Below are positions 6,050 through 43,796 of a DNA stretch of 64,000 nucleotides, one piece after another. Position 1 is the stretch's first letter. Each line of letters starts with the position of its first letter. The notes beneath the pieces are model-generated. The model made no database searches and had not been told where the DNA came from. It was given only the letters and a program-made list of their open reading frames with translations. The stretch is from Candidatus Poriferisocius sp. Lineage in GTDB: Bacteria > Actinomycetota > Acidimicrobiia > Acidimicrobiales > Bin134. A program made the position numbers and the translations under genes. The stretch is taken from positions 1,360,349 through 1,424,348 of the forward strand of contig NZ_OZ241836.1 of assembly GCF_965202595.1 (NCBI RefSeq). Reading direction: 5' to 3'.

Positions 6050-6083
6050 CAGGCTACCGCGTGCACGGGCGGCATTGCTGATA

Positions 6084-9856: not shown

Positions 9857-10597
9857 TCACCGCAGCCGGAGCGGGTCGGCCAGAAGCTGGTTCTGCTGAG
9901 CGATGATCTGCTCGATCCCCGAGCGGGCCAAGTCCAGGAGCGTGTCCAACCGGTCCCGGCGGAACGGTTGCCCCTCGGCGGTGCCCTGAACCTCCACAAA
10001 GCAACCCGATTCGGTCATGACCACGTTCATGTCCACCTCGGCGGCCGCATCCTCCTCATAGGGCAAATCAAGCGACGGCGTACCGTTGACGATCCCCACC
10101 GACACCGCAGCACACGCCTCTGTGATGGGGTGCTGGTCGATCTCGCCCCGGGCCAGCAACCGGGTGAAGGCATCGTGCAGGGCGATGTAGGCCCCGCTGA
10201 TGGCGGCGGTGCGGGTACCGCCATCGGCCTGCAACACATCGCAGTCGCAGACCACTTGACGTTCCCCCAACCTGGTGGCATCGGTCACCGCCCGCAGGGA
10301 GCGTCCGATCAGCCGCTGTATCTCCTGGGTGCGACCTGATTGGCGGCCCCGAGCCGCTTCCCGGTTGACCCGCTCGGATGACGAGCCCGGAAGCATGGAG
10401 TACTCGGCGGTGACCCAGCCTCTGCCCTGTCCTCTCATCCAGCGGGGAACCGAACGATCAACCGATGCCGTGCACAACACCCGGGTACGCCCGAACGAGA
10501 CCAGCACCGATCCATCGGCCATCTCGGTGAAGTCCCGCTCAAAGCCGATGGGCCGCAACTCATCAAAGGCCCGACCATCACCTCTCATACTGCTCAT
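9857..10597 (-). CDS. rph: ribonuclease PH
   Basis: 246-aa ORF with [42 protein letters not shown] and [14 protein letters not shown]. Confidence 0.93.
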
Positions 10598-10638
10598 TTC
10601 TCATACCGACACCCCTTTTGGCTGCTCATTTCTCGCCC

Positions 10639-12559: not shown

Positions 12560-12564
12560 CGGCC

Positions 12565-12667
12565 TCAGGCTACTCCCCCACCGCCACCGGCTCCTCCATG
12601 GTGCGACATATCGTCCATTTCGGAGGGGTCACGCTTCAGGCTACTCCCCCACCGCCACCGGCTCCTC
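12565..12667. repeat. 32-nt direct repeat pair, 71-bp offset, of the mec 3' end including its stop
   Basis: tcaggctactcccccaccgccaccggctcctc occurs at 12565-12596 and 12636-12667. The second copy carries the mec TAG (12641-12643). Confidence 0.9.
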
Positions 12668-14805: not shown

Positions 14806-14856
14806 CTGCTGCTCCCTTCTCGCGCCCTCCGAAACCTACTACGCCCGGGCTACCCG

Positions 14857-14954
14857 CAGGCGCTCAGGTGTCCAGGAACCGCTAGGGGCGGTGCTGGTGG
14901 GTCTCCATGGCCGCGTCGGGGGCAACCACCAGGCACTCAGGTGTCCAGGAACCG
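14857..14954. repeat. 25-nt direct repeat pair, 73-bp offset, of the ftsX 3' end including its stop
   Basis: caggc(g/a)ctcaggtgtccaggaaccg occurs at 14857-14881 and 14930-14954. The second copy carries the ftsX stop (14937-14939). Confidence 0.85.
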
Positions 14955-16682: not shown

Positions 16683-16857
16683 ATCACGATAGCCGCTTCC
16701 ACCGCAAATAGGCCTCGATCACGATAGCCGCTTCCACCGCAAATAGGCCTCGATCACGATAGCCGCTTCCACCGCAAATAGGCCTCGATCACGATAGCCG
16801 CTTCCACCGCAAATAGGCCTCGATCACGATAGCCGCTTCCACCGCAAGTAGGCCTCG
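16683..16857. repeat. 35-bp tandem repeat x5 of the prfB 3' end including its stop codon
   Basis: atcacgatagccgcttccaccgcaa(a/g)taggcctcg starts at 16683, 16718, 16753, 16788 and 16823. The fifth copy is the real gene end (stop 16824-16826). Confidence 0.93.
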
Positions 16858-17924
16858 ATCAACTGGTCGAGATCGCCGGCCAGCACCCCGTCCACGTTGC
16901 CGATCGATACTCCGGTGCGATCGTCCTTGACCTGCTGGTAGGGATGCAGCACGTATGAACGGATCTGACTACCCCATTCCGCCTTCATGTAGTCGCCGGC
17001 CAGACCGGCCAGCTCGGCCTCCCGCTCGGCTCGAATCCGGTCGGCCAGGCGGGCGGCCAGTATCTGCATGGCTCGGTCCTTGTTCTGGTGCTGGCTGCGC
17101 TCATTCTGGCACGACACCACTATGCCGGTGGGCAAGTGGGTTATCCGCACCGCCGAATCGGTCACGTTGACGTGCTGGCCGCCCGCTCCCGACGACCTGA
17201 ACGTGTCGATCCGCAGGTCCTTGTCGTCGATGTCCACCTCGTCCGACACCTCGTCGAAGAACGGCACCACCTTGAACTGGGCGAACGCGGTGTGGCGGCG
17301 GGCATCCGAGTCGAACGGCGAGATACGAACCAGCCGATGAACCCCCCGCTCCGATTGCAGCAGCCCGTAGGCGTTGCGTCCCGAGATGGTGAACTCGGCC
17401 GAGGATATACCCGCCCCCTGCCCCTCGGATACCGAGTCAACCTTGAATTTGAAGCCCCGTCGGTCGGACCACCCCCGGTACATGGCCAGCAGCATCTCGG
17501 CCCAGTCCTGGGCGTCGGTGCCCCCCGCACCGCTGTGAATCTCGCACACCGCGTCGGATCCGTCATGCTCGCCCCCCAGCAGCGACCGCAGCTCCAACTC
17601 GTCCACCTTGGCAGCCAGGGTGGCCAGCATCTGGGAGATCTCCGGGACCAGTGATTCGTCACCCTCCTCGGTTGCCAGCAGGTGCAGCGTGTCGGCATCC
17701 TCCAGCGCCGCTTCCAGCTCGGCAAACAGCTCCAGATCCTCAACCAGCTCCGACAGCTCCCTGGTGACCCTGCGAGCCCGGTCGGGGTCGTCCCATAATC
17801 CGGGAGCAGCGGCCGCGGCCTCCAGCTCGGGGCGGCGGAGGGTCAAGTCGCCGATGCGCAGGTAGTGGCGGGCCCCGTCCAATTTGGTGCGAAGCAAGGC
17901 GATATCGTCGAAGAAATCAGGCAC
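16824..17924 (-). CDS. prfB: peptide chain release factor 2
   Basis: 366-aa ORF with an SPF-region and the GGQ motif (SGAGGQHVNVTDSAVRITHLPTG). The frame is uninterrupted. Confidence 0.93.
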   Translation of the reverse strand: MPDFFDDIALLRTKLDGARHYLRIGDLTLRRPELEAAAAAPGLWDDPDRARRVTRELSELVEDLELFAELEAALEDADTLHLLATEEGDESLVPEISQMLATLAAKVDELELRSLLGGEHDGSDAVCEIHSGAGGTDAQDWAEMLLAMYRGWSDRRGFKFKVDSVSEGQGAGISSAEFTISGRNAYGLLQSERGVHRLVRISPFDSDARRHTAFAQFKVVPFFDEVSDEVDIDDKDLRIDTFRSSGAGGQHVNVTDSAVRITHLPTGIVVSCQNERSQHQNKDRAMQILAARLADRIRAEREAELAGLAGDYMKAEWGSQIRSYVLHPYQQVKDDRTGVSIGNVDGVLAGDLDQLIEAYLRWKRLS

Positions 17925-20823: not shown

Positions 20824-21156
20824 TCAACCGGCCCGGCGCTCCCCGGCGTTGTGCTGGCGGTTTACCCGGCGGGTCTTCTCCTTGCGCAACTGCCGCTCCA
20901 GCTTGTCGATGGCACCATCCAGGGCCGCTTGTGCAGTAACGCCATGGCCACCGCCGCGGATGTGGTAACCGTGACCCTCGAGGGTCACCTCGCAGTTGAG
21001 GGGCTCCGCGATCCGAGGATTCCTCTCCTCGCTGAACCTCACCTCGGCACGGTCGATGCCCGACAGGTAGCGGTCCAGCTTGGCCACCTTGGTACGGGTC
21101 ACCTCCTCCAGCTTCTGCGACACCTCGACCCCACTGCTGCTTATGGCGATATCCAT
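20824..21156 (-). CDS. hpf: ribosome hibernation promoting factor / S30AE family, short form
   Basis: 111 aa from Met-18 of the ORF, preceded by an AAGGAG RBS. S30AE pattern: VEVSQKL..KVAKLDRY...AALDGAIDKLERQLRK. Confidence 0.85.
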   Translation of the reverse strand: MDIAISSSGVEVSQKLEEVTRTKVAKLDRYLSGIDRAEVRFSEERNPRIAEPLNCEVTLEGHGYHIRGGGHGVTAQAALDGAIDKLERQLRKEKTRRVNRQHNAGERRAG

Positions 21157-21246
21157 AGCGGCTCCTTTCTTTATGAGACCTGATAAAATACAATATCGTA
21201 GCACCATTTTACTGCTGTAGCACGAAAGGCGTTTGAACTGTGCCTC

Positions 21247-22503
21247 CTATAGCCCCCTCAATGCTTGGATTGGCTGAATTCTCGCGGCTTTCAACGAAGG
21301 GTATATGCCCGCAGCAAGTCCAATAATGACCCCAGACATTGGCGCAAGAATGGGCAACCAAGTTTGAAGTACAGCATCCCAGCCTCTTATTGCAGAAACT
21401 ACTGATATTATAATGAGACCAAAAGAAGTTCCCATCAAACCTCCGTGAGCACCCAATACCATAGACTCAATAAGAAATTGATGAGCTATCTGTATCCTTG
21501 TAGCGCCAACAGCCCGGCGAAGCCCAATTTCTGCGCGACGCTCCAATACAGAGGCTAGTGTCACATCAGCTATACCAATTCCCCCAATTATTAAAGTAAT
21601 GATACCCAGCAAAATAAACAGCATATTGATATCACTCCTGACCTTATCTTTCAGACCAGTAAGGTCTGAAGAAACTGTTATACTAACTAGATTAGGGTCA
21701 TTAGGGCTAAGAGCAACAGGAGCTTGCTGAGCAAGTAGGTTGGCAGCACCTATTTCCGTACGGATGTACACAAGACTAGGTGCTTCTATACCATATACTT
21801 GTCTAGCAGTTCCGTTTGGTATGATGATCTGTGACAATAACTCAACATGACGTTCCACACCAAAGTCAGCAATCACTCCTATTACAGCAAAACGTTCTTC
21901 GCCCACAAATATAACAGGCTGATTATCAACCCTTCCTATATTCAATCGTTGCGCAGCCACTGGTCCAAGAATAGCAACTTTATCACCCATCTTATCGTGA
22001 CCTACATCGAAAAAACGGCCAAACTTCAAACTAGTATTTACAGCGTCAAAAAGGCCAGGTGAAGCTGCAACTACTTCAATTGAAAACTCCGTAGCAGCGG
22101 CAGGGTCTGTGACAGGAACACTAGTAGTTACTGCTCCACCGATATTTATCAGAGTAAGTGTACCCACCGCTTCTACACCATTCAACCGAGAAATTCTTGA
22201 TTCAGAATCCCATGGCAAAAAGTAATTATGCTGGTTACTCACCAAAACATTATTGTCTGCAACTTCAGCAGTAACTTCTGTAGCAGATAGCTTATCGAAA
22301 TGCCCTACTATCTGACTACCGGCGGTTTCTGTAAGCCCCACGGTTGCCACCAGCATGCAAACTCCCATCACCGTACCGAGAATTGTCAATACTGCCCTAG
22401 AAGGCCAGTTAACCAAACCAGATGTAGCTTCAATAAGCAGATCAATAATAGAAATTCTAGGCTTACTTAAAGCTATTTTAGGTTTATTCATGGGGTCAAT
22501 CAA
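21247..22503 (-). CDS. ABC transporter permease, MacB/FtsX family
   Basis: 418-aa ORF with an N-terminal TM, a large periplasmic domain and a C-terminal FtsX-type 3-TM bundle. TTG start overlaps the stop of the upstream ATPase by 4 nt. Confidence 0.85.
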   Translation of the reverse strand: MIDPMNKPKIALSKPRISIIDLLIEATSGLVNWPSRAVLTILGTVMGVCMLVATVGLTETAGSQIVGHFDKLSATEVTAEVADNNVLVSNQHNYFLPWDSESRISRLNGVEAVGTLTLINIGGAVTTSVPVTDPAAATEFSIEVVAASPGLFDAVNTSLKFGRFFDVGHDKMGDKVAILGPVAAQRLNIGRVDNQPVIFVGEERFAVIGVIADFGVERHVELLSQIIIPNGTARQVYGIEAPSLVYIRTEIGAANLLAQQAPVALSPNDPNLVSITVSSDLTGLKDKVRSDINMLFILLGIITLIIGGIGIADVTLASVLERRAEIGLRRAVGATRIQIAHQFLIESMVLGAHGGLMGTSFGLIIISVVSAIRGWDAVLQTWLPILAPMSGVIIGLAAGIYPSLKAARIQPIQALRGL

Positions 22504-23180
22504 TTATAATCTTGGACTATACCATCATTCACCTGGAGAATTCTATCAGCCCGTTTAGCTATATCGAGATCGTGGGTGACAAGCAAGATAGTGAGTCCTC
22601 TATCACGAAGATTCTCAAAAATATCTAGGACATCTTTACCGGTACTTTGATCCAAGTTCCCGGTTGGCTCATCTGCTAATAACAAACTAGGGTTACCCAC
22701 AATAGCTCGAGCAATAGCTACGCGTTGTTGCTCACCTCCTGACAAAGTATTTGGTCTAACTTTAGCATGTTTCTCTAGTCCAACTTCTTTCAAAGCTATT
22801 TTCGCTGCTTGTACCCGAGAGGCACGGCTCTGCTTCCTATACAATAATGGTAAAATAACATTATCAAGAACTGTGCGGTGCTCAAGTAAATAAAAATGCT
22901 GAAATATAAATCCAATCTTTTGACTTCTCAAAGTAGTCAACTCAACATCATCAAGGTCATCAATATTTAAGCCATCTAAAAAATATGTGCCCTGTGAAGC
23001 GCTCTCTAGTAAACCGACTATATACAATAATGTGCTCTTTCCTGATCCTGATGGGCCTATAAGCGAAACATACTCCTTATGACAAATCGTGATATCCACA
23101 CCTCGCAAAACCTGAACAGGGGTGTCACCGGAAAAAGTACGCTGTAAATTGCGAATCTTAACAATTGGAGTATCTTCCAT
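22500..23180 (-). CDS. ABC transporter ATP-binding protein (MacB/LolD-like)
   Basis: Walker [10 protein letters not shown], signature [14 protein letters not shown], Walker [14 protein letters not shown] set the start at Met-15 (23180), 13 nt after the upstream stop. An alternative TTG start lies at 23222. Confidence 0.9.
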   Translation of the reverse strand: MEDTPIVKIRNLQRTFSGDTPVQVLRGVDITICHKEYVSLIGPSGSGKSTLLYIVGLLESASQGTYFLDGLNIDDLDDVELTTLRSQKIGFIFQHFYLLEHRTVLDNVILPLLYRKQSRASRVQAAKIALKEVGLEKHAKVRPNTLSGGEQQRVAIARAIVGNPSLLLADEPTGNLDQSTGKDVLDIFENLRDRGLTILLVTHDLDIAKRADRILQVNDGIVQDYN

Positions 23181-23193
23181 AACCTGCCTAGAG

Positions 23194-24528
23194 CTAATAA
23201 GTAGTGGGATCCAACATGCCAACTACTACCTGAGTCCCTTCCACGATAGAGACATCATCTAGAGGACGTATTTCAACCTCCCCAAAAGCACGCAGGCCTG
23301 TCTCAACCTTTACTGTAATGATTTCTCCTTCAGGACTTTCAATTTGAACTTGGGGTATATTATCTATACTGATTGATAGTGCAGAAAATGGAACTGTAAG
23401 AACTTTGCCATTTGTAGATGTTATAGGAATCACAACTCTCACATTACCAGACAGGGCTCCTGCATCTTCTCCCAGGATACTAATCTCCATATAATATCTA
23501 TTATCTGGTAGGTCATTTGTGCCTGGCACATCCTCAAGAAAAGTGATCTGACCTTCGTAGGTACTATTATCTGACTGATTGTCTAGCATAACACTCATGC
23601 CAGTTTCTATTAAAGATATGTCCGTACTGGAGATCGAAGACTCAACAATATGTTCAACTCCTGACAAAGCAACATATACTTCAGAGATAATATCCCCACG
23701 ATTTACAAATACTTGGGCTACTTGCCTCGGTAACTCTGATACAAATATAATTTCTTCTTTGGGCACTCTTGATCCATAAATACTCGTGTTCCTTGTCAAC
23801 ATCAATTCTGCTATTTCCAGGTTCCGCTCAAACTGAGCAATCCTAGATGAAACTCCTAATTCCTCCAGGTTTGATGTTGAAGAAGTAATACTTTTTGCTT
23901 GTCTTAGTTGCTCTCGGGCAGCATCTACCTGATTTTGGCTACGAACAATTTGCTCTCTATCCTCTAATGAAGGCTCATACATACTATATCCAGCATCGCT
24001 ATAAAATACCTCTACTGCTTCTTCCATAGATAAATCATAAACACCATCAATAGCTCCTACATCATAACCTATACGGGTTAAGGCCTCTTCTAATTGCCGG
24101 ATATCCTCTCCCTCCAAACCTAGATGAAAGTCTCGGAACATTGGTAGTTCACCTTGAAAAACGAATACAGGCCTAAATGTTACCTCAGCTACAACATTGC
24201 CTTCTACTACTCTTGACCCAACATTGAGTATATCTTTTGTAAGGATAGAGGCTCCTGCTCCTTGTACTAAGTTGATATTCTTTGCACCCTTTGTGCGGAC
24301 ATTCCCTCGCACAGCTACTCTTGATTCCAACTCTTGATATTTAACTGGTACGGTTATAATACTAGGTTGAAGGTCCCCTGAAGCAAAACTAGATTCATCT
24401 GATGAGCCTAATGTTCTGCCAGCTAGCCACCCACCAACGCCAGCTAAAACAGTAACCACAGTCACAATAGATATTACCTTATGTGGGCGCATAACCCTTC
24501 CAATGATCTTTTGACTTAATGCTCGCAA
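23194..24528 (-). CDS. HlyD-like periplasmic adaptor with peptidoglycan-binding domain
   Basis: 444-aa ORF with an N-terminal TM anchor, a PG_binding_1-like segment (LEEALTRIGYDVGAIDGVYDLSMEEAV), a coiled-coil region and a beta-barrel-like C-terminus. It lies upstream of the ABC pair. Confidence 0.72.
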   Translation of the reverse strand: MRALSQKIIGRVMRPHKVISIVTVVTVLAGVGGWLAGRTLGSSDESSFASGDLQPSIITVPVKYQELESRVAVRGNVRTKGAKNINLVQGAGASILTKDILNVGSRVVEGNVVAEVTFRPVFVFQGELPMFRDFHLGLEGEDIRQLEEALTRIGYDVGAIDGVYDLSMEEAVEVFYSDAGYSMYEPSLEDREQIVRSQNQVDAAREQLRQAKSITSSTSNLEELGVSSRIAQFERNLEIAELMLTRNTSIYGSRVPKEEIIFVSELPRQVAQVFVNRGDIISEVYVALSGVEHIVESSISSTDISLIETGMSVMLDNQSDNSTYEGQITFLEDVPGTNDLPDNRYYMEISILGEDAGALSGNVRVVIPITSTNGKVLTVPFSALSISIDNIPQVQIESPEGEIITVKVETGLRAFGEVEIRPLDDVSIVEGTQVVVGMLDPTTY

Positions 24529-24555
24529 CAGTAAGGAGAAAATTAAAGCAATTTA

Positions 24556-25410
24556 TCAATTTGATACTTGTTGATTAGCAATATCTTTGATGATTATATT
24601 GATATAACTTTGAAGAGAACTATCAATCAGTTCTTGCTGTAGTTGAACCTTAGTTACTTCAAGATTTGCAGAACATTCATCATTAGCTGTATTTATAGAT
24701 CGCTCAAACATGCGTGCGTTTGTGAGATCTGAAGCAGCATCTGCTGTAATTTCATCTTGAATCATTTGAGTGATGTCAGCAAATTTTTGTATGGAATAAC
24801 CATTGTCAGACATACAGTTGAGCCACTTTTCTTCTTCAAACAGGTAATCAGGGTGGGACTCAATTTGCTTATCAAAATCTAGTGAAGCATTTAGCACCTT
24901 TAAGCGAGCTTCTACAGCTCTTCGACCATATAGTTCAACCCACGCTGCATTATAACATCCAAATCTACTTTCATCACCGCTGGGCGAGTCCCCTTCAACC
25001 ATATCTTCTTTGCCCCACAATCTCTCATAATATGCAGTTTTTTCCTGCCTTGATAATCTACCATAAATCTCAGCATTAGGATCTTCATCATTTTCGGAGC
25101 TAGATAAACTATGCTCATAAGCATCAACAACTGGAGTATCCGATTTAGAATAATCATAAATATGAGCATCCTCCACCCAGGGTATATACTCAAATCCAGC
25201 TTTGTGCATACAATCTGCTACCCAATCTTGTACCTCACCTTCACGTATTACTAGGTACTGATTATCAGCATCTAGAAGACCTTCTAGAGTAGAATACTCA
25301 CGAAGAGATACACCATCATTGTCGCCTGAGGAACAGGATAACAGGCCGCAAAGACCAACAACGTATATTACTAGTAACATATTTTTCATGTTTGATAACA
25401 TAACTTCCAA
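24556..25410 (-). CDS. hypothetical lipoprotein
   Basis: 284-aa ORF with a signal peptide and lipobox (GLLSC). An internal CM..xG(F/Y) motif occurs twice (DCMHKAGFEY, NCMSDNGYSI). Confidence 0.6.
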   Translation of the reverse strand: MEVMLSNMKNMLLVIYVVGLCGLLSCSSGDNDGVSLREYSTLEGLLDADNQYLVIREGEVQDWVADCMHKAGFEYIPWVEDAHIYDYSKSDTPVVDAYEHSLSSSENDEDPNAEIYGRLSRQEKTAYYERLWGKEDMVEGDSPSGDESRFGCYNAAWVELYGRRAVEARLKVLNASLDFDKQIESHPDYLFEEEKWLNCMSDNGYSIQKFADITQMIQDEITADAASDLTNARMFERSINTANDECSANLEVTKVQLQQELIDSSLQSYINIIIKDIANQQVSN

Positions 25411-25428
25411 ATAAAATCTTGGTATAAA

Positions 25429-26043
25429 CTATTCATCAATAAAACCATGAAGCTCAAGAACTAGAGGTCTGCCTTCAGCTATATCAATTGCGGTGGACAA
25501 CACGTTCATCGGGTCTGGACTATAGTGTCCCCCCCTTGCTTCAAGAAGATCATTTGCCTTTTGAGCTATTGGTCCAAGTTCCGGAATTGTTTGAGCCATA
25601 GAAGTGTCACGTATGTCATCATTCCGAGGACATAATGTAGGATTTTCTTTCAACACTTCTATCATAACATCTTGCAAAGTACCTGATACAAGAGGAATCA
25701 CTTGACTACCTGTGTGAGTACTTATATCCTGCTCAACCATCTGGACAAGTTCTCCCGTAAAGATTATTTCTAACCCATCTGCATACCAAGTTGCTAAATC
25801 AACACAACCACTAGTTTTTGGTGGTTCAGTGTACCTTTTAATAGCTTGATTCACAGCAGCTACTATTTCTGGATCATTTGATACTTTCCCCCCGTGTTCT
25901 ATCTCAAACTCCCCACTTTTAAAGACTATTGATGAGGAGTTAGAGCCATCATCTCCACACCCAGCAAGTAATATAGCTATAATAAGGGAAATCAAAAATA
26001 AAAAAAAATTTCGCTTCAAAAAGTGTGTATTCCTTCTGGTCAC
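25429..26043 (-). CDS. hypothetical lipoprotein
   Basis: 204-aa ORF with a signal peptide and lipobox (ILLAGC). Confidence 0.6.
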   Translation of the reverse strand: MTRRNTHFLKRNFFLFLISLIIAILLAGCGDDGSNSSSIVFKSGEFEIEHGGKVSNDPEIVAAVNQAIKRYTEPPKTSGCVDLATWYADGLEIIFTGELVQMVEQDISTHTGSQVIPLVSGTLQDVMIEVLKENPTLCPRNDDIRDTSMAQTIPELGPIAQKANDLLEARGGHYSPDPMNVLSTAIDIAEGRPLVLELHGFIDE

Positions 26044-26080
26044 GGATCAACCTGTAACTACAGTACCAAAATGAAACCAG

Positions 26081-26572
26081 TTAGCATCTAAGGCCAGTTG
26101 TATGAGGGCTAGAACTCCTAATCCACTTTGTTGCTAGCCCATCTATTGTAATTGAGCCTCCCAGGCTTCCTATACCTAAGGAAATAGAAGTAGTAGATTG
26201 ATTTACTAGTTTTAGATCCAACCGACCTCGGTATGTACCCGGTGACTTATTACAAGTTGCATATGCTCCTGTATAGGAAATTTGGTTAAAAGGAACTATT
26301 ATCTCAGAGTTGCCAGATGTGTGCCATCCCCAAAAGCTATATTGAATTTTATATCTAGCTTCGCAGTACACTACACCGCAACTACCACTTAGCAAGATCC
26401 AACTGCGCGGATGGCCGTTGTCATTGTACGGAGGGGCCATCCCATCGTTTGTGATTTGCGCACTGGCCGACTGTTGAAAGGTCACTAGCGTGGCCAGAAG
26501 CACGATTACACTCAAAAAAGCCAAAAGGGGCCTGGAGGCTAGCCCTCTCGTCCGGATCGGTAGTGCACTCAT
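26081..26572 (-). CDS. small secreted Cys-containing protein, function unknown
   Basis: 163-aa ORF with an AGGAG RBS and a signal peptide ending SASA-Q. The mature part is about 125 aa, beta-rich, with 4 Cys. Confidence 0.62.
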   Translation of the reverse strand: MSALPIRTRGLASRPLLAFLSVIVLLATLVTFQQSASAQITNDGMAPPYNDNGHPRSWILLSGSCGVVYCEARYKIQYSFWGWHTSGNSEIIVPFNQISYTGAYATCNKSPGTYRGRLDLKLVNQSTTSISLGIGSLGGSITIDGLATKWIRSSSPHTTGLRC

Positions 26573-26662
26573 TTCTCTCCTACCTCTTCAATAGTGCCTG
26601 GATAGGCCTCAAGCTTGGTCTTTCCTCACTTGCTAATGCAGCTCTTACCAAAGCTCGCTCCC

Positions 26663-26771
26663 CTTGTCAAGTCTTTCCAATTTTTTGAGCCCTCGCCTCG
26701 GAGCATTGGGCCGAAAACCATCCCACCCAAATCCTCTTGTCAAGTCTTTCCAATTTTTTGAGCCCTCGCCT
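26663..26771. repeat. 36-nt direct repeat pair, 73-bp offset, of the comF 3' end including its stop
   Basis: cttgtcaagtctttccaattttttgagccctcgcct occurs at 26663-26698 and 26736-26771. The second copy carries the comF stop (26740-26742). Confidence 0.9.
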
Positions 26772-27375
26772 GCTGTGGAGCGCTCGCAAGCGGAGGAGCA
26801 GGCGTGGTTCCGGCCACCACCGCGAACACCTGTTGGGCACCGGCCCCGATCAAGGCTCGGGCGGCTGCTTGTAGGGTGGCTCCGGTGGTGATCACATCGT
26901 CCACGACCAGAATCGTACCAGGGGGGCGGCGGCGGGGATCGAAATTCGGGGAACCGTACCGCTGGCTGCGACTTCGTCCGGTCTGGCCCGCGGCATCCAT
27001 CCTCCGCAGCAGGGGAACCAGGGGCAGGCCGATCTCGCGGGCCAACCTCCGGGCAAGCAGTTCGGCCTGGTCAAAGCCCCTGTGCCGGCGGCGGTGAGGA
27101 GAAGTCGGAGCCCAGGTTACCGCGTCCACGGCCGCCCCAGCCGGCAACGCCTGGGCCATGGCCGACACCACCCACCTCACGCAGGACCGCTGGTTGCGGT
27201 ACTTGAGCTGGGCCAGCAACTCCCGCCCCGCCCCCTCGTAGGAGAAGGCCGCCCACAACCCGGACAGCGGTTCGAGCGCCACCATCTCCCCGATGGACCG
27301 CATCCCAGCCGCACACCGCCGGCACGGCGACGGCCCCGGCCCCCGGCAACCCGCACATGCTCTCGACAGCAGCAC
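26740..27375 (-). CDS. comF: ComF family phosphoribosyltransferase-like protein
   Basis: 211-aa ORF with an N-terminal Cys cluster (CAGCRG...CRRC) and the PRTase motif ILVVDDVITTGATL. Confidence 0.85.
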   Translation of the reverse strand: MLLSRACAGCRGPGPSPCRRCAAGMRSIGEMVALEPLSGLWAAFSYEGAGRELLAQLKYRNQRSCVRWVVSAMAQALPAGAAVDAVTWAPTSPHRRRHRGFDQAELLARRLAREIGLPLVPLLRRMDAAGQTGRSRSQRYGSPNFDPRRRPPGTILVVDDVITTGATLQAAARALIGAGAQQVFAVVAGTTPAPPLASAPQQARAQKIGKT

Positions 27376-27385: not shown

Positions 27386-27549
27386 TAGAAACGCCCGGTG
27401 ACAGCCAAGCAGAACAGCCGGACGAAAGGAGGACTCCAACCAGCATCTGGAAACGACCGGTGACAGCTATGGTGCTCGACAGCACCGGGGTTGCCAGCAA
27501 CGACCGCAACGAAGCATCTGGAAACGACCGGTGACAGCTATGGTGCTCC
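27386..27549. repeat. 36-nt direct repeat pair, 71-bp offset, plus a weaker third copy, between comF and ahcY
   Basis: agcatctggaaacgaccggtgacagctatggtgctc occurs at about 27442 and about 27513. There is a partial copy, gaaacgcccggtgacagcc, at about 27388. Confidence 0.82.
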
Positions 27550-29112: not shown

Positions 29113-30183
29113 TTATCGAGGGTCGCCGATCAGCGTCTCCCGAGCCGTGACGATGGCCGGCACCGGGCCGGGATCGAGGCCAACCACGGCGGCCATCTCC
29201 AACGCGGTGACCGACCCCTGGTACATGAGATCGAATATCTGGGCCACCGGACCCTCCCCGGCCGCCTCCACCAAGTGGACGGACCCCACCACCTCTTCCA
29301 TCATCTCCTCCACGATCCCAAAGCCCCGCATCACCTCGGGGTGCTCGTGCTCATGGCGCAAAACCACCAGGCTGAACGCCTGGCGGGTCAAGTCGCCGTG
29401 CTGGCCCCAACCGGCGATCTCGTTGTGCAAAAGGTCGGGCACCCCGGCGCTGAACGCCGGTGACTTGGCGCTGGTGTTGATCATGTTCTTCCAGTGCCGG
29501 GCGGCCACCAACCCCAACCCCCCGCCGCCGTAGATCAGCGACACTGTGCCGGCCAGGCCCCGGGCCAGGGCTAAAGCCGTACCCCCGACCGTGTCCCGCC
29601 GTCTCCGGATCTGCTCCACCGCATGGCGCACCCATTGGGTGGCACCGGGGAACAATCCCATGCGCTCGAGGACGATCATCGGGGCCACGGTGAACACCCC
29701 CAACCCGGCCCGGGGCGGGTACAGCATCGGGTCCACCTCGATCAGCGGGGCCCCCCAGTCGGTGGCCAACCGAGCCAGTTGGCCGCCTCCGGTCACCGCC
29801 ACCACCCGCCCGCCGGCCTCGGCCGCCTGGGTTGCGGCCTGGAGGATCTCGGGCGTGTCGCCGCTGGCCGAGAGGGCGAAAACCAGAGTCTGCTCGTCCA
29901 CATACGACGGTGGCTGGTAGCTCTTGACCACCACGATGGGCAGGGGCATGAACGGCCCCGCGGCCACCGCCAGCAGGTCGCCGGCAAACCCGCACGGGCC
30001 CATACCCAGCACCAGCACGTTGGCTATACCCGACCGGTCGGGCAACCGAGCCAAGTCCTTGGCCCGATCCACGGCATCCAGCATCTGCTCGGGCAGCCGG
30101 TTGATGGCAGGCCACATGCCCAGGGTGTCCACCCGCTCGTTCATGCTGATCCGTTCACGATAATCCGTCGCCGGAACCGGCAA
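29113..30183 (-). CDS. SIS-domain bifunctional phosphoglucose/phosphomannose isomerase-like protein
   Basis: 356-aa ORF with two SIS-like halves (VLGMGPCGFAGD, ALSASGDTPE), next to manA. TTG start at 30183; the ATG at 30144 is an equally plausible start. Confidence 0.72.
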   Translation of the reverse strand: MPVPATDYRERISMNERVDTLGMWPAINRLPEQMLDAVDRAKDLARLPDRSGIANVLVLGMGPCGFAGDLLAVAAGPFMPLPIVVVKSYQPPSYVDEQTLVFALSASGDTPEILQAATQAAEAGGRVVAVTGGGQLARLATDWGAPLIEVDPMLYPPRAGLGVFTVAPMIVLERMGLFPGATQWVRHAVEQIRRRRDTVGGTALALARGLAGTVSLIYGGGGLGLVAARHWKNMINTSAKSPAFSAGVPDLLHNEIAGWGQHGDLTRQAFSLVVLRHEHEHPEVMRGFGIVEEMMEEVVGSVHLVEAAGEGPVAQIFDLMYQGSVTALEMAAVVGLDPGPVPAIVTARETLIGDPR

Positions 30184-30270
30184 GAGCGCCCACGGGCCGA
30201 AGGCAGACCGTGGGGTTCAGATGCTGACCCAGGACTGGAGTCGCCGGAACCGGCAAGAGCGCCCACGGGC
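30167..30270. repeat. 31-nt direct repeat pair, 73-bp offset, at the SIS-gene 5' end
   Basis: gtcgccggaaccggcaagagcgcccacgggc occurs at 30167-30197 and 30240-30270. Confidence 0.9.
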
Positions 30271-30613: not shown

Positions 30614-31831
30614 TCAGTTCGTTCGGGCCCTGAACACCAGCCCGGTTCCGGCAACCTCGTACTCCCCGGTTCCCGCCGGCAACCAGATCGCGGCACCCCC
30701 GGCGACCTCGTGGCCCGCGGCCACCACCCGGCCCGATGCGCACAGCAGGATCTCCGGTCCCACCGGTTGGCACACCACCGTTTCGGTCACCTCCATCCGG
30801 GTCGTGATCGAGTTCGACGATGACCTCCCCGGTTGGCACACGACCGTTTCGGTCACCTCCATCCGGGTCAAGGAGAAGTCCCGGACCGGCGGCCTGAAGG
30901 TGTGAACCGGGCCCTCGGGAACCATAACCGGTGCCCGGTCGGGGTGGCAGTCCACCACCTCCATCAGGGCGGCGGTATCCACGTGCTTGACGGTGAGCCC
31001 GCCCCTCAGCACGTTGTCGCTGCTGGCCATGATCTCCACCGCCACACCGTGCAGGTAGATGTGCAGGCTGCCCGCCCCCAGGTAAAGGGCCTGCCCCGGG
31101 TCGAGATGCACTGGGTTCAGCATGAGGGCGATGGCCACGCCGATGTCCCCGGGGTGCTGCTCGCCAATGCGAACCGCCCACCGCCTCTCGCCGGGGAAAG
31201 AACCGGGCCGGGCGCAGGCCGCCACCACCCGGTGGGCAAGCTCGGAGCCGTCCCCCGGGGGCAACTCCAGCAACCATCGCAGCGCTGCCTGTATCTCCCC
31301 GGCGTTCAGCAGCTCGATCACCGGGCTCAGCCCGGGAACCTCCAGCGATTCGAGGAGAGCAGCGGTGGTGGTTGGCTGCCGGAACCCGCACAGGGCGGTG
31401 AACGGTTCGAGCGCGCAGATCAGCTCCGGCTTGTGGTTGCGGTCGCGGTACAACCGGTGGGGTGCGGTTAGCGGGATGCCTCGGGCGTCCTCGGTGGCGT
31501 GCCCCGCTTCCGCCCGGGAACGGGTGGGATGCGCCTGCAACGACAGCGGCTGGGCCACAGCCAGGATCTTGAGCAAAAAGGGCAGCTCACCGCCGAAGGT
31601 GCCGGCCGTGTCGGACCCCAGCTCCCCCACCGGGTCGGCGGCGATCACCCGGTCGAGCGGACGGTTCATCCCGTCCCGATGCAGTACCGATGGGGCTCGG
31701 GGGTGGGCCCCCAGCCAGAGCTCGGCCTGGGGATCCCCGGTGGGCGGGACACCCATGATTCGAGGCAGCGCCGTCACCGACCCCCAGGCATAGCGCTGCA
31801 CCACGCCGTGCAATCTCCCCGGCCCGTTCAC
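30614..31831 (-). CDS. manA: mannose-6-phosphate isomerase, class I
   Basis: 405-aa ORF with YAWGS, ELWLGAHP and QAHP motifs. It contains an in-frame 66-bp internal duplication (see findings). Confidence 0.9.
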   Translation of the reverse strand: MNGPGRLHGVVQRYAWGSVTALPRIMGVPPTGDPQAELWLGAHPRAPSVLHRDGMNRPLDRVIAADPVGELGSDTAGTFGGELPFLLKILAVAQPLSLQAHPTRSRAEAGHATEDARGIPLTAPHRLYRDRNHKPELICALEPFTALCGFRQPTTTAALLESLEVPGLSPVIELLNAGEIQAALRWLLELPPGDGSELAHRVVAACARPGSFPGERRWAVRIGEQHPGDIGVAIALMLNPVHLDPGQALYLGAGSLHIYLHGVAVEIMASSDNVLRGGLTVKHVDTAALMEVVDCHPDRAPVMVPEGPVHTFRPPVRDFSLTRMEVTETVVCQPGRSSSNSITTRMEVTETVVCQPVGPEILLCASGRVVAAGHEVAGGAAIWLPAGTGEYEVAGTGLVFRARTN

Positions 31832-32654: not shown

Positions 32655-32862
32655 AGCGGTGAATTCGTCCGTCGAATTGCCAAATCCACCTCCGACCGCC
32701 GGAGGTGCCACCGCCCTCTGCCCGCAGAATTGCCGAATGGCCTGGCCGTCGCCCTTGAGCACTTGAGCACTTGCTGCCCGTAGAATCGCCGAATGGCCTG
32801 GCCGTCGCCCGCCCGATGGTGAATTCGTCCCTCTGCCCCGTAGAATTGCCGAATGGCCTCAC
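32655..32862. repeat. cluster of 3-4 copies of a (c/t)agaat(t/c)gccgaatggcc module, offsets about 57-60 bp, upstream of ftsH
   Basis: Copies occur at about 32671 (degenerate), 32725, 32781 and 32841. There are also two copies of ggtgaattcgtcc (about 32658 and 32818). Confidence 0.75.
32841..32846 (+). promoter_or_regulatory. candidate -10 element (TAGAAT) for a leaderless ftsH transcript
   Basis: TAGAAT ends 6 nt before the ftsH ATG (32853), so the expected TSS falls at or next to the A of the ATG. Actinobacterial -10 consensus is TAnnnT. Confidence 0.4.
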
Positions 32863-34850
32863 CCCCTCCTCCCGAGCGGCGTGATTCCCAACGCGGACCG
32901 GGCCAGCAGACCACACCGAACCGGGTACCCCGCTGGCTGTGGGCAATCGCGTTGGGGATAATGCTCGCCCTGTTGTTTTCCGGGGTTTTCCGCAACAACG
33001 ACAACGGCGAGGAGATCTCCTTCAAGAAGTTCGTGACCTGGGCCGAGAACGAGCAGATCGAGAAGGCCGAGTACAACAACAACACCGGCAACATCAAGGG
33101 CACGACCACGGATGGGACCAGGTTTCACACCACCGGACCGATCCCGCTGAAGGAAACGGTCGAGGACAACCTTCGGAACAACATCGGGGAGGCTTTCAAG
33201 TACCACACCCCCAGCAGCAGCATCTGGAGTACCATCCTGCCGCTGCTCATCCCGGTGCTGCTGATCTTTTTCATCTTCTGGTGGTTCCAGCGCCGGGCCC
33301 AGGGCCAGATGAGCGGGATCATGTCCATCGGCCGATCCAAGGCCAAGACGTACACCACCGAGCGACCGGGAACCACCTTCAAGGACGTGGCCGGCTACGA
33401 GGGGGTCAAAAAGGAGATCGTCGAGATAGTCGACTTCCTCAAGCACCCCGACAAGTTCTCCCAGATCGGGGCCCGCATCCCCAAGGGAGTGCTGCTGGTG
33501 GGACCGCCGGGTACCGGCAAGACCCTCATCGCCCGGGCGGTGGCCGGAGAGGCCGGGGTTCCGTTCCTGTCGGTCACCGGGTCGGACTTCATGGAGATGT
33601 TCGTCGGGGTGGGGGCCAGCCGGGTGCGGGATCTGTTCCAGTCGGCCCGCAAGATGGGGCGGGCCATCATCTTCATCGATGAGATCGACTCCATCGGCCG
33701 CAAGCGGGGGGCCGGGTTGGGCGGCGGCCACGATGAGCGCGAGCAGACCCTCAACCAGATGCTGGCCGAGATGGACGGGTTCGAAGCCACCGAGGGCATC
33801 GTGATGATGGCGGCCACGAACCGGCCCGACATCCTCGATCCGGCTCTGCTGCGCCCCGGGCGGTTCGACCGTCAGGTGGTGGTTCCACTGCCCGAGGCCG
33901 ACGACCGGCTGCAAATCCTCAATGTCCATGTCCGCTCCAAGAAGATCGCCGCGGATGTGGATCTTCCGCTGATCGCCCGGGGCTCACCGGGCATGAGCGG
34001 TGCCGATCTCGCCAACCTGGTGAACGAGGCTGCGTTGTTCGCGGTGCGCAACGACTCGGATCAGATCCGCATGATCCACTTCGAGCATGCCCGGGACAGG
34101 GTGCTGATGGGCCAGCGCCGGGAGTCCATGGCCATGTCCGAGCAGGAACGCCAGATCACCGCCTACCACGAGGCCGGTCATGCCGTTTGCGCCGCGGTGC
34201 TCCCTCACGCCGACCCTCTGCACAAGGTGACGATCATCCCCCGGGGCATGGCCCTGGGAGTGACCATGACCCTTCCCGAGGAGGACCGTCACACCCTGCG
34301 GCGCGATTACCTGGAGGACATGCTGGTCATGCGCATGGGCGGGCGCATCGCCGAGGAGTTGGTGTTCGGCGTGTCGTCGAGCGGCGCGGCCGATGATCTG
34401 GCCGGTTCCACCGAGTTCGCCCGGCGCATGGTGCGGGAGTGGGGTATGAGCGACCGCATCGGACCCATGGCCTGGCGGAGCTCGGGGCAGGTGTTTTTGG
34501 GCGACGAGATGATGACCAGCCGGGAGTACAGCGACGAGACCGCCCGGGTCATCGACGAGGAAGTGGCGGATATCCTGTGCTCCCAGGAAAACCGGTGCCG
34601 GGAAGTGCTCTCCGAGCACCGCAACGGCCTCGATCTGGTGGCCCGGGCGCTGCTGGAACACGAGACCATTTCCGGCGAGGAGGTGGGCCGGCTGGTTGAG
34701 TTGGGGGCTGAGAATCCCGTCGGGGATCCCCGGGATGTGATCGGCGTTGCCCTGGCGGCCCGGGGCGCGGCGGCGACACTGGCATCCACGACCCCTGCTG
34801 CGTCCGACCCCGAGGAGGCGGACGCGCCGGAGACGTGGCCCGCACCCTGA
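32853..34850 (+). CDS. ftsH: ATP-dependent zinc metalloprotease FtsH
   Basis: 665-aa ORF with Walker A GPPGTGKT, an SRH region and the HEAGH zinc motif. Confidence 0.95.
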
Positions 34851-35279: not shown

Positions 35280-35456
35280 GTGAACGAACCCTCAGTACTG
35301 GCGGAACTGGCGGGCACACCACGACCGCCCCGGACCCAACCACCGGCAACATGAACGAACCCTCGACACTGGCGGAACTGGCGGGCACACCACGACCGCC
35401 CCGGACCCAACCACCGGCAACATGAACGAACCCTCGACACTGGCGGAACTGGCGGG
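35280..35456. repeat. 71-bp tandem repeat (2.5 copies) of the acyl-CoA synthetase start region
   Basis: (g/a)tgaacgaaccctc..actggcggaactggcgggc starts at 35280, 35351 and 35422. Full 71-bp units are repeated twice and the third copy is the real gene start. Confidence 0.92.
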
Positions 35457-36927
35457 CCGGTCACCGGGTGATCTGGCCCTGGAGGATGACACCCACCGGG
35501 TGAGTTGGGCCGAACTCGATCGCCGCACCCATGCCATCGGGCAGGGGTTGCTGGCATCCGGAGCCACTCGTGGGGACCATGTCGGGCTGGTGTGCTCCAA
35601 CCGCACCGAGTTCGTGGAGGTCATGCTGGCCTGCTTCCGGGCCGGCCTGAGGATGACCCCGATCAAGACCAACTGGACAGCCACCGAGATCGCCTACGTG
35701 CTGGACGACGCCGGGTCGGCTCTGGTGGTAACGGATGTGCCCGCAGCCCTGGATGCCGCCGGCGACCGGCCAGTGCTTCGGATGGACGACGGTTTCGATG
35801 CCTGGGTGAATGCCCAGGATCCCCGACCCTTCCCGGCAGGTGGCACCGGCTACCGCATCCCCTACACCTCGGGCACCACCGGGCGGCCCAAGGGAGTGGA
35901 GCGCACCCTGGACTCGGAGTCCACCTTCGAGCAGTGGTGGCAATTCTCATCTTTGGGAGCCCAGGGTTTGGGTCTGCCCCGTGACGGCAAGCACCTGATG
36001 GTGGCCCAGCTCTTCCACGGCGCTCCCCTGGCTTTTGCCCTGGGGGCGCTGGCCAATGGTGCTCCCATGCGGATCATGGGCCGCTGGGACGCCCACCGCT
36101 CGGTGGACATCCTCAACGACGGGGTGACCTCCACCATCATGGTGCCCACCATGTTCCGCCAGCTCCTGGGCCTGACCACCGAACGCCGGGCTGAGCTGGA
36201 TCATTCCCGGCTGGTCACCGTCCTGCACGGCGGCGAACCCTGCCCGGTACCGCTCAAGCGGCGCATGATCGATTGGTGGGGCCCGATCTTCACCGAGTAC
36301 TACGGGTTCACCGAGGGAGGCATGACCATGTGCAGCTCGACCGAGTGGCTGGCTCGGCCGGGCACGGTGGGCACCCCCATAGGGGAGCTGGCCATCCAGA
36401 TCGTGGGCGAAAACGGCGAGCTCATGGGGCCGGGAGAGCCCGGCACGGTTTACTTCCGCCGGCCCGAGGGACGCTACTTCCGCTATATCAACGCTGACAC
36501 CAAGACCGATGAGGCCTACAACGATGCCGGCTTCTTCTCGGTGGGTGACATCGGGTATCTCGATGAGGACGGCTACCTGTACCTGTCGGGTCGCAGCTCC
36601 GAAGTGATCGTGGCCGCGGGCGTGAACATCTACCCAGCGGAGATCGAGGACGTGGTGTTCGGGGTGGAGGGGGTGGCCGATGCCTGCGCGGTGGGTGGTC
36701 CCGACCCCGATCGGGGCGAGCAGGTGGTGGTTTACCTGGCAGTGGCCGAGGGTTTCGAACCCGACGATGTGACCACGGCCATAGATGCTGCCTGCGCCCA
36801 GCACCTGGCCGGTTACAAGCGCCCCCGCCGATACATAATTGGCCCAACCGTGGACCGCGACCCCACCGGTAAAGTTTTGCGCACCAAACTACGCGACCAA
36901 CTCTGGGATGCTGCCGACCCGCAATGA
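35422..36927 (+). CDS. AMP-dependent acyl-CoA synthetase/ligase (FadD-like)
   Basis: 501-aa ORF with the AMP-binding motif YTSGTTGRPKGV, GEPC and GD.GY.DEDGYLY.GR. Confidence 0.9.
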   Translation: MNEPSTLAELAGRSPGDLALEDDTHRVSWAELDRRTHAIGQGLLASGATRGDHVGLVCSNRTEFVEVMLACFRAGLRMTPIKTNWTATEIAYVLDDAGSALVVTDVPAALDAAGDRPVLRMDDGFDAWVNAQDPRPFPAGGTGYRIPYTSGTTGRPKGVERTLDSESTFEQWWQFSSLGAQGLGLPRDGKHLMVAQLFHGAPLAFALGALANGAPMRIMGRWDAHRSVDILNDGVTSTIMVPTMFRQLLGLTTERRAELDHSRLVTVLHGGEPCPVPLKRRMIDWWGPIFTEYYGFTEGGMTMCSSTEWLARPGTVGTPIGELAIQIVGENGELMGPGEPGTVYFRRPEGRYFRYINADTKTDEAYNDAGFFSVGDIGYLDEDGYLYLSGRSSEVIVAAGVNIYPAEIEDVVFGVEGVADACAVGGPDPDRGEQVVVYLAVAEGFEPDDVTTAIDAACAQHLAGYKRPRRYIIGPTVDRDPTGKVLRTKLRDQLWDAADPQ

Positions 36928-36973: not shown

Positions 36974-37063
36974 GCCGGCTCGCAACGCCTACAAAGTGCT
37001 CCCGGTAAAACGCCGGCTCGCAACGCCTACGAAGTGCTCCCGGTAAAACGCCGGCTCGCAACC
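36974..37063. repeat. 38-bp tandem repeat (about 2.3 copies) of the 3' end (with stop) of the acetate--CoA ligase family gene
   Basis: gccggctcgcaacgcctac(a/g)aagtgctcccggtaaaac starts at 36974, 37012 and 37050. The second copy carries the stop (37027-37029). Confidence 0.88.
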
Positions 37064-39201: not shown

Positions 39202-39307
39202 GAGATTGGTAGCAGCGTGCTTCGATTAACCTGCTGTGTAAGTGTGGTTGAAATGTTCGCCGAAACGGGCGAGTAGCGCTTGGGGGTACGACAACACCGT
39301 GGTGTAT

Positions 39308-43793: not shown

Positions 43794-43796
43794 CCA

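Follow-up and report, generated by a model that had tools for sequence, protein, structure and literature searches.

How did about 5.6 kb of AT-rich DNA come to lie between comF and hpf in a GC-rich, sponge-associated actinobacterium, and what would the six genes that it carries do there? The locus lies in a stretch of 64,000 nucleotides (nt) from an Acidimicrobiia genome recorded as Candidatus Poriferisocius sp. (assembly GCF_965202595.1, contig NZ_OZ241836.1, positions 1,360,349 to 1,424,348 of the forward strand), hereafter the window, whose coordinates we use throughout. An original prediction, made from the letters alone, had described a low-GC island of six genes at this site. We found that the island is very probably a real insertion of horizontal origin: its composition is far from that of the host, and its place is empty in the two closest relatives. 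The fuller explanation is a lineage-specific acquisition from a low-GC donor, with a functional module of secreted proteins and a MacB-type pump as its cargo, and we regard it as probable, with less assurance than the insertion itself. The island and its immediate neighbours are the following.

20824 to 21170, minus strand: hpf (open reading frame 20824-21156) with its conserved ribosome-binding site; a short ribosome hibernation-promoting factor (Pfam Ribosomal_S30AE, NCBIfam yfiA above cut-off); host DNA.
21171 to 21246, minus strand: AT-rich spacer from the permease stop to the hpf ribosome-binding site, the new upstream region of hpf.
21247 to 22491, minus strand: MacB-type (type VII ATP-binding cassette, ABC) permease, with the MacB_PCD extracytoplasmic domain (PF12704, 4.4e-13) and the FtsX transmembrane domain (PF02687, 1.3e-15).
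22500 to 23180, minus strand: ABC ATPase, LolD/MacB/FtsE-like (Pfam ABC_tran, PF00005, 6.6e-30).
23194 to 24492, minus strand: adaptor-like protein of 432 amino acids (aa), with an N-terminal membrane anchor, a PG_binding_1 domain and a middle stretch weakly like coiled-coil proteins.
24556 to 25401, minus strand: lp284, predicted lipoprotein of 281 aa, lipobox LLSC.
25429 to 26043, minus strand: lp204, predicted lipoprotein of 204 aa, lipobox LLAGC.
26081 to 26572, minus strand: sec163, Sec-secreted protein of 163 aa, signal peptide ...SASA/Q, four invariant cysteines, predicted all-beta.
26659 to 26771, no strand assigned: repeat-spacer-repeat at the right edge, with repeats at 26732-26771 (including the comF stop) and 26659-26698 and a unique 33-nt spacer at 26699-26731.
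26740 to 27303, minus strand: comF, ComF-family phosphoribosyltransferase-like (Pfam Pribosyltran, NCBIfam comF); host gene.

The contrast in base composition is large at every level at which we measured it. In 500-nt windows, with the two low-GC stretches of the window left out of the baseline, the host has a GC content of 0.647 ± 0.038 (n=110, minimum 0.554), whereas the ten windows of the island between 21171 and 26771 have a mean of 0.407 (range 0.368-0.434), about 6 standard deviations lower; the whole insert of 5,601 nt has a GC content of 0.413. At third codon positions (GC3) the six genes have, from sec163 to the permease, 0.41, 0.28, 0.26, 0.29, 0.31 and 0.31, against 0.77-0.88 in the flanking comF (0.77), hpf, secA, prfB and sahH. 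Both profiles (GC 0.41 against 0.647, GC3 0.26-0.41 against 0.77-0.88) are those of a horizontally acquired island, and the low-GC island predicted between hpf and comF is thus confirmed. The predicted abrupt drop in GC holds for the left edge, where it falls from 0.62 to 0.36 in about 50 nt near 21125-21150, and fails for the right one, which is graded (0.46-0.60 over 26300-26750, then 0.74 at 26775). The shift reaches the amino acids. The permease has a frequency of glycine, alanine, arginine and proline (GARP) of 0.295, when all of its 119 best homologues have at least 0.335, and a frequency of phenylalanine, tyrosine, methionine, isoleucine, asparagine and lysine (FYMINK) of 0.225, when these homologues have at most 0.169. 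A shift beyond all 119 homologues argues for a long evolution in a low-GC lineage.

We scanned for comF in one genome per species among 185,579 species representatives and retrieved the two closest relatives, a Candidatus Poriferisocius sp. chromosome (Acidimicrobiia, Acidimicrobiales; L007) and the sponge metagenome-assembled genome (MAG) IRC1_bin_38 (L008). Protein identities between the window and these two are about 70-74% for comF (72-73% over 138 residues by tblastn), 73% for hpf, 88-89% for secA, 87-88% for prfB and 90% for sahH. The gene order is sahH-comF-hpf-secA-prfB-ftsE in L008 and comF-hpf-secA-prfB-ftsE in L007, where sahH lies about 7.6 kb upstream of comF. By blastn, the window is colinear with the relatives from 27357 to 26801 and then leaps to 21168, continuing to 20831; the gap between the comF and hpf blocks is about 78 nt in the relatives and 5,632 nt in the window. 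The two genes overlap in both relatives, where the reading frame of comF continues as far as the start of hpf (…CCGCCATGGATGTGA) and the comF stop shares nucleotides with that start (ATGGATGTGA). Neither carries the island at the syntenic site, and neither has a 500-nt window below 56% GC within 20 kb. The absence of the island from this site is what the original prediction expected of a synteny comparison; it named as fatal that all relatives should have these genes here with the same low GC, and neither L007 nor L008 does. The empty site and the overlapping comF and hpf of the relatives thus place the insertion in the lineage of the window.

Adjacency of comF, with or without hpf, to secA is common in other Acidimicrobiia loci, and the intervening genes, where present, are of native composition. 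One Acidimicrobiaceae MAG of 49.5% GC (L029, 10880-16593) has 5.7 kb of secreted-protein genes of native composition between hpf and secA, so that the comF-hpf-secA neighbourhood is not invariant in the class.

The junctions can be placed by the points at which similarity to the relatives ends and resumes. On the comF side, likeness to L007 and L008 stops after ...CCACAGCAG at about 26772. The next 32 nt of the gene (26740-26771) encode ARAQKIGKT and a stop with AT-rich third positions (GC3 about 0.33 in the tail codons), i.e., the last ten or so codons of comF and its stop are island-derived. Because the similarity of the relatives ends here and AT-rich codons follow, the original comF tail of about 22 codons was evidently replaced by insert DNA, with about 46 nt of the tail involved. 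Likeness to the relatives returns on the hpf side with GAAAGGAGCCGC(T)ATG, about 14 nt ahead of the hpf start; the ribosome-binding site GAAAGGAGCCGC aligns with that of both relatives and is therefore host DNA. Sequence similarity thus points to an insert spanning about 21171-26771, or about 5.6 kb. These junctions refine the original prediction in three respects. Six AT-rich genes do stand between hpf (20824-21156) and comF (stop at 26740), with comF losing its tail to them instead of being left intact by a clean intergenic insertion. The low-GC block was correctly seen, and its right edge, set at about 26640, is displaced to the point inside comF, at about 26772, where similarity ends. The sequence upstream of hpf is indeed AT-rich, and the ribosome-binding site, which had been counted with it, is conserved host sequence. 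A MAFFT alignment had hinted that 21171-21250 might be retained comF tail, an idea that we rejected after Smith-Waterman comparison with 2,000 shuffles: the score against the tail of the relatives, reached by 65% of the shuffles for L007 and 4% for L008, is at chance. The heptamer ACAGCAG occurs both at the right junction (26772-26778) and at 21212-21218; it was spotted post hoc and may be microhomology.

The right edge also carries a repeat-spacer-repeat structure, with two 40-nt repeats that match at 39 of 40 positions and lie 73 nt apart. One repeat begins exactly where the comF similarity of the relatives ends, and it contains a TTGACA hexamer on the minus strand. The 73-bp duplication that the original prediction noted here (26663/26736) is therefore real, and it consists of island-type DNA instead of host DNA abutting the island. 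Since the repeat is made of island-type codons and includes the new comF stop, the duplication must postdate the insertion, and the island edge has taken part in a duplication process of the host.

A chimeric assembly, in which a low-GC fragment of another organism of the metagenome was misjoined between comF and hpf, would also produce an extreme contrast in composition, and the window does come from a metagenome-derived contig of 3.04 Mb. We consider this explanation extremely improbable. Exact protein matches to the secreted-protein gene and to secA led to a separate contig of 36.5 kb (L001) in assembly ERZ26693861 of the European Nucleotide Archive. It crosses both junctions and has 99.99% identity with the window along stretches of 20.5 and 22.7 kb, whereas a misassembly, which the original prediction had considered, would have left them unsupported. 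Only two differences separate the contigs, both inside the island: an A-homopolymer indel at 22769 (13804 in L001), which would frameshift the ATPase in this contig of 2x coverage, and a single-nucleotide polymorphism at 21887 (14687 in L001), which exchanges alanine and valine in the permease. The same exact protein matches were also found on contigs longer than 1 Mb, and the two assemblies that share the junctions are likely independent. The fine structure of the junctions also speaks against a misjoin: the insert points the same way as the genes on either side, an in-frame stop encoded in the island ends comF, hpf retains its ribosome-binding site, and a type of duplication specific to the host has arisen where island-type sequence is joined to comF.

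The insertion altered two conserved housekeeping genes, by rewriting the end of comF and removing its overlap with hpf. The comF product keeps its phosphoribosyltransferase domain and ends in the new tail ARAQKIGKT. The overlap of stop and start in the relatives suggests translational coupling, which would be gone in the window, where hpf starts 90 nt past the permease stop; the spacer in between (21157-21246, host ribosome-binding site included) has a GC content of 0.43. In the two relatives the last 50 nt or so of comF (10500-10600 in both L007 and L008) are near-identical despite an overall comF identity of about 72%. This suggests that the comF/hpf overlap is a constrained coupling or regulatory element, which would have been lost in the lineage of the window. 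The transcription of hpf now probably reads through from the operon of the island or starts at a promoter within it, because the insert is co-directional and there is no terminator-like site or stable hairpin ahead of hpf. Neither promoter-like nor terminator-like sites were found between the permease and hpf (the counts being 14 promoter-like sites for 10.3 ± 3.3 expected, and 4 terminator-like sites for 6.3 expected, which is not informative), and both junction regions fold no better than shuffled sequences. Rfam searches returned nothing in the island and a single tRNA in the whole window.

The six open reading frames of the island are all on the minus strand, in the direction of comF-hpf-secA, and are packed with gaps of about 8-63 nt. 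Three of them form an ABC system. The permease has MacB_PCD between transmembrane helices and a C-terminal FtsX domain, the architecture of MacB or type VII ABC permeases, and its phmmer matches include the MacB structures 5lil, 5gko and 5nik and the Streptococcus pneumoniae MacAB-like permease 5xu1 (E about 1e-17). The ATPase shows Walker A, signature and Walker B (LLLADEPT) motifs, as ABC ATPases do, and scores about 200-220 bits with each of the NCBIfam models LolD, MacB, FtsE, DarD and L_ocin_972_ABC, always under the cut-off. The adaptor-like gene is directly upstream of the ATPase and permease in all loci examined; its product has Pfam PG_binding_1 in seven of seven homologues, PG_binding_1/2 being the only domains detected, and its C-terminal region is conserved among six aligned homologues. 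A profile of the protein gave weak matches to coiled-coil proteins and one weak biotin/lipoyl match (E 0.55).

The other three genes encode exported proteins. Homologues of sec163 are rare, with just 7 clusters at 51-57% identity, one additional locus in a scan of Joint Genome Institute metagenomes and none in a scan of IMG/VR; the mature protein has about 125 aa and its four cysteines make two disulfides probable. It has no Pfam or NCBIfam match (E <= 0.01), its predicted structure is of low confidence (predicted local distance difference test score, pLDDT, of 58), a PDB fold search with it was empty at E <= 0.001, and an alignment of the regions upstream of its homologues revealed no conserved promoter. 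For lp204, a word-index search returned no homologue. The family of lp284 is larger (244 clusters at 50% identity), uncharacterised, predicted to be all-helical and endowed with conserved cysteine pairs; it has no Pfam match and no PDB sequence match, and its AlphaFold model (pLDDT 86) has no PDB fold match. Paralogues of lp284 precede other MacB cassettes.

The organisation of these genes elsewhere suggests that they belong together. We examined five other contigs that carry sec163 homologues (L094, L096, L097, L099 and L101). In all five a gene resembling lp204 (34-43% identical) follows the sec163 homologue. A gene resembling lp284 (36-43%) comes third in L096, L097 and L101, stands apart beside the permease in L094, and was not seen in L099. 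The sec163 unit is in every case divergent from, and next to, a gene for a protein of 169-194 aa, a gene for an extracytoplasmic function (ECF) sigma factor, of the envelope-stress type, and a gene for an anti-sigma-like protein of about 260 aa. After that, most of the contigs have a gene for an S-layer homology (SLH) domain protein, and the cluster goes on with genes for a paralogue of lp284, for an adaptor-like protein with a PG-binding domain, and for the ATPase and permease of a MacB-type ABC system, as far as the contigs reach: the cluster is complete in L094, L096 and L099, goes to the adaptor in L097, and is cut in the short L101, which ends at the sigma genes. The MacB cassette or its adaptor end is therefore visible in four of the five (L094, L096, L097, L099). 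The window has the same association, as we defined it here by a trio beside a MacB cassette, with both parts fused in one operon. As the trio of sec163, lp204 and lp284 neighbours a MacB cassette in other genomes, it most likely forms with the pump a functional module.

Two of these contigs show variants of the arrangement. A second cassette with an AT shift lies at 6535-8472 in L097 (GC3 about 0.50, the surroundings having 0.74-0.82), encoding a different small cysteine-rich secreted protein (153 aa), a protein of 205 aa and a lipoprotein of the lp284 family (276 aa), which suggests modular variants made of a secreted protein, a protein of about 205 aa and an lp284-like protein. In L094 (10517-11569) the lp204 homologue has 350 aa and two tandem lp204-like domains.

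Where did the island come from? The best homologues of the island proteins are all in DNA of 60-70% GC, those of the permease, ATPase and adaptor in contigs of 63-70% GC. The best database homologues of the permease are 57-58% identical, and the few permease homologues that are named are mostly labelled Actinomycetota, Acidimicrobiales or Actinomycetia. Taken with the composition, these homologies indicate that the donor would be a low-GC lineage absent from the databases searched, with genes of Actinomycetota type. In the scenario that we favour, about 5.6 kb of low-GC donor DNA would have been inserted in the 3' end of comF in an Acidimicrobiia bacterium related to Ca. Poriferisocius, a genus of sponge symbionts, the likeliest routes being illegitimate recombination or homologous exchange with a relative already bearing the island.

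Several observations weigh against this scenario. No homologue closer than 57-60% turned up among the databases searched, and in blastn searches of 72,556 plasmids and 50,697 phages with the island as query, nothing matched outside the ABC ATPase gene, where the matches had 83-138 nt. The integration is left unexplained by the gene content: Pfam and NCBIfam found no integrase or transposase domain, there is no tRNA near the island (the only one in the window is at 9068-9153), and no inverted or direct repeats, att-like ones included, bracket it. In the lack of integrase, transposase, tRNA and flanking inverted repeats, our domain, tRNA and repeat searches agree with the original prediction. 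With relatives that are only of genus level, the time of insertion is loosely bounded and the right boundary could be anywhere in 26573-26771. Finally, the trio tends to be AT-shifted elsewhere too: in the five other genomes its GC3 is 0.43-0.60, against 0.64-0.84 in adjacent genes, and when these genomes are compared in pairs, the identity of sec163 and of lp204 rises and falls with that of the adjoining genes for sigma and anti-sigma-like proteins (r of 0.75-0.89 over 10 non-independent pairs). A trio that is AT-shifted and yet apparently co-inherited elsewhere makes low GC alone a weak clock for recent transfer.

This behaviour of the trio would fit an old resident module kept at low GC, for example because selection favours AT-rich DNA or acts weakly on fast-evolving genes, and brought to its position by rearrangement. 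In the five other genomes the GC3 of the trio is 0.2-0.3 below that of the adjacent genes, and its divergence follows that of the ECF sigma and anti-sigma-like genes, which agrees with a long common inheritance at reduced GC. We nevertheless consider such an origin very unlikely. The six genes of the window have a GC3 of about 0.3, far under the 0.43-0.60 of the trio elsewhere, and they include ABC genes that are normally GC-rich; the amino-acid usage is shifted as well; and the two nearest relatives have none of the genes at this site, where comF and hpf overlap in a sequence near-identical over its last 50 nt or so. Horizontal acquisition remains the best reading because all six genes, the normally GC-rich ABC genes among them, are lower still than the trio elsewhere, and because the site is empty in the relatives.

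An alternative closer to our scenario is a decayed integrative element that has since lost its integrase, or a cassette spread between strains by homologous recombination through the comF and hpf/secA flanks. Such an origin is favoured by the precision of the insertion, which follows the direction of a conserved gene and lies at its 3' end, and by the ACAGCAG pair (26772-26778 and 21212-21218), and an islet of similar style at 49143-51175 is likewise devoid of mobility genes. We rate it as unlikely, yet far less so than the old resident module or the chimera. The open reading frames of at least 60 aa contain no integrase remnant, no direct repeats bracket the island, the heptamer was spotted post hoc, and the sequence from the heptamer to hpf resembles the comF tail of the relatives only at chance. 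The island also has no phage, plasmid or viral-contig match beyond the ABC signature motif, which gives no indication of an integrative element or plasmid-derived block. We thus retain lineage-specific acquisition from a low-GC donor. As an event the acquisition is real but fairly ordinary; it would be a clean, well-bounded case of genes passing from a lineage unsampled in current databases to a GC-rich, sponge-associated actinobacterium. The recurrent AT-shift of the trio in unrelated genomes adds the caution that low GC alone does not date a transfer.

The window holds other regions of unusual composition or structure. The second of its low-GC stretches is a sharp-edged islet at 49143-51175 (GC 0.38-0.48, GC3 0.36-0.39), between an acyl-CoA dehydrogenase-like gene and an EngB-like GTPase gene. 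Its three minus-strand open reading frames encode proteins of 202 aa (signal/lipobox-like), 75 aa (signal peptide) and 276 aa, with no Pfam match, no mobility gene and no relationship to the island proteins; we considered a kinship between the two low-GC stretches and rejected it, as the proteins of the islet are unrelated to the sec163-lp204-lp284 trio. A stretch of 58% GC at about 39000-45400, which is not an rRNA operon, encodes a helix-turn-helix protein, a DUF5131 (phage Gp37/Gp68-like)/GP88 protein, a DUF7700 protein and several open reading frames without matches, and may be a phage-derived or defence islet.

The repeat-spacer-repeat structure at the right edge of the island is one of at least 13 in the window, at the following sites.

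6079-6187, 6996-7103, 7749-7840, 12562-12667, 14847-14954, 26659-26771 and 27442-27548: repeat-spacer-repeat structures.
30167-30270, 30763-30869, 32718-32870, 46305-46413, 59804-59894 and 60664-60766: further such structures.
35281-35457: a tandem version.

Each has a different repeat of 31-41 nt, in copies 86-100% identical (at least 95% in 10 of 13), and a unique spacer of 19-42 nt; the spacers have no source in the window and are mutually unrelated. The spacing from start to start is 71-73 nt in nine cases, and most structures are at or across gene boundaries. They are absent from the 20-kb loci of L007 and L008 and from most other loci checked. At three aligned sites the relatives appear to have one repeat copy and no spacer (most clearly at 12562), and in the sahH-comF spacer a motif found once in the relatives occurs three times in the window. 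Plain tandem duplication was considered and rejected: it would yield a 72-nt repeat, and the difference between that geometry and the observed one indicates that another process is at work. The geometry resembles that of off-target (ectopic) CRISPR spacer integration, a process for which PMC7054753 cites Nivala et al. 2018; the length of the repeats varies more than such integration would predict. Four spacer segments had no match as exact 27-30-mers in IMG/VR, a search that is uninformative. There are also near-perfect tandem arrays at gene junctions (1126-1435, 52 nt x 6; 16683-16861, 35 nt x 5.1; 4682-4803; 8994-9083; 36974-37062; 37688-37765), none of which is present in the L007 or L008 loci; the 35-nt array is at the end of prfB, in a place that has 254 nt in the window and about 116 nt in the relatives.

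What might the module do? Pumps of the MacB family use cytoplasmic ATP hydrolysis to drive the movement of an extracytoplasmic domain (mechanotransmission) and handle substrates on the outer face of the membrane. A MacB-type pump with a wall-anchored adaptor would thus expel or hold off a substrate at this face, and the three secreted proteins would partner the pump. In one version sec163 would be a secreted toxin, or bacteriocin-like protein, from which the lipoproteins and the pump protect the producer, following the logic of SDP and YknWXYZ in Bacillus. In another the whole set would shield the envelope from an external antimicrobial. In place of a toxin, sec163 might be an accessory binding protein. 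The precedent is that YknXYZ protects the cell from outside the membrane against SDP, a Sec-exported toxin with a disulfide bond (PMC5985334). By this analogy we tentatively lean towards a role in toxin protection or envelope defence, at somewhat short of an even chance. Two points count against it: sec163 and lp284 have no informative fold match, so that the functional reading comes from gene neighbourhood and analogy, and the adaptor-like protein has no sequence match to MacA/HlyD.

The same features could describe a complex that, like FtsEX, regulates an extracytoplasmic enzyme or lipoprotein, in wall remodelling or in the handling of lipoproteins or surface proteins, with the PG-binding protein and the lipoproteins as effectors. 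The PG_binding_1 domain of the adaptor-like protein is typical of wall hydrolases, which together with its lack of MacA/HlyD similarity suits such a complex; so do the two lipoproteins of the cargo, the equal scores of the ATPase on the LolD, FtsE and MacB models, and the SLH-domain wall proteins and ECF sigma factors of related loci. Yet Pfam and NCBIfam detected no hydrolase domain in the six proteins, the permease finds its nearest matches in MacB itself and in the MacAB-like pump of the pneumococcus rather than in FtsX or LolC, and the host has its own ftsEX beside prfB. We therefore see this role as the main functional rival but a minority reading, clearly less probable than toxin protection or envelope defence. 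More speculative still, and in our view doubtful, is the idea that the six genes are an undescribed system of secreted toxin and self-protection, or of envelope defence, made up of a disulfide-bonded secreted protein, two lipoproteins dedicated to it and a MacB pump anchored in the wall. Such a system would have no mobility genes and yet pass between Actinomycetota whose GC contents differ widely, the AT-richness of the trio possibly being held by selection, e.g., through an AT-binding silencer that makes expression conditional. Whichever the role, the module consists of unannotated members, among which lp284 has a confident predicted fold without a solved relative, and it offers a concrete target for work on how symbionts in a community defend their envelope or antagonise one another in a bacteriocin-like way.

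The comparison with known systems places the island next to several of them without full identity to any. Like classical genomic islands, it deviates in GC and codon usage, is absent from close relatives, carries accessory envelope-related cargo and is inserted at the 3' end of a conserved gene; it differs from them in having no integrase, tRNA target, flanking direct repeats or mobility genes, in being small and made of a single operon, and in its unusually large GC3 contrast of about 0.55. Clusters of the lactococcin 972 type, with a Sec-secreted, beta-rich bacteriocin and its dedicated ABC transporter, are like the island in that the latter encodes a Sec-dependent secreted protein predicted to be all-beta and an ABC system of the FtsX/MacB class. 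However, the ATPase of the island scores 203.6 bits on TIGR03608 (cut-off 254.85), no better than on LolD, MacB or FtsE, and searches at E <= 0.01 did not assign sec163 to the lactococcin 972 family. Lactococcin 972 is also not known to contain disulfides, whereas sec163 probably has two.

The systems YknWXYZ of Bacillus subtilis and Spr0693-0695 of S. pneumoniae also resemble the pump, with a separate ABC ATPase, a permease with a MacB core and FtsX domain, and an upstream membrane-anchored extracytoplasmic partner. The partner differs in the window, where it has PG_binding_1 and no detectable similarity to MacA/HlyD, and there is no YknW-like gene. As in the pair of YknXYZ and SDP, a Sec-exported cysteine-containing protein is involved (PMC5985334), here encoded in the operon itself; the window adds two lipoproteins of uncharacterised families, and its secreted protein has about 125 aa when mature, against the 42 aa of the SDP peptide. 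Further counterparts are uncharacterised cassettes of four genes in Actinomycetota (lp284-like protein, PG-binding adaptor-like protein, ABC ATPase and MacB-like permease; in L003-L006, L087-L092, L094, L096 and L099). They have the order and families of the window, with identities of 47-57% for the ATPase and permease and 30-50% for the adaptor, and they occupy varied genomic sites at a native GC of 63-70%, whereas the window version has 38-43%. The permease, ATPase and adaptor of the window are closest to the L087-type cassette (57%, 53% and 40-50%) and less similar to the cassettes that neighbour the trio elsewhere (about 50%, 49% and 35%). In the five other genomes the trio is separate from the cassette and divergently transcribed, whereas the window joins the two in a single operon.

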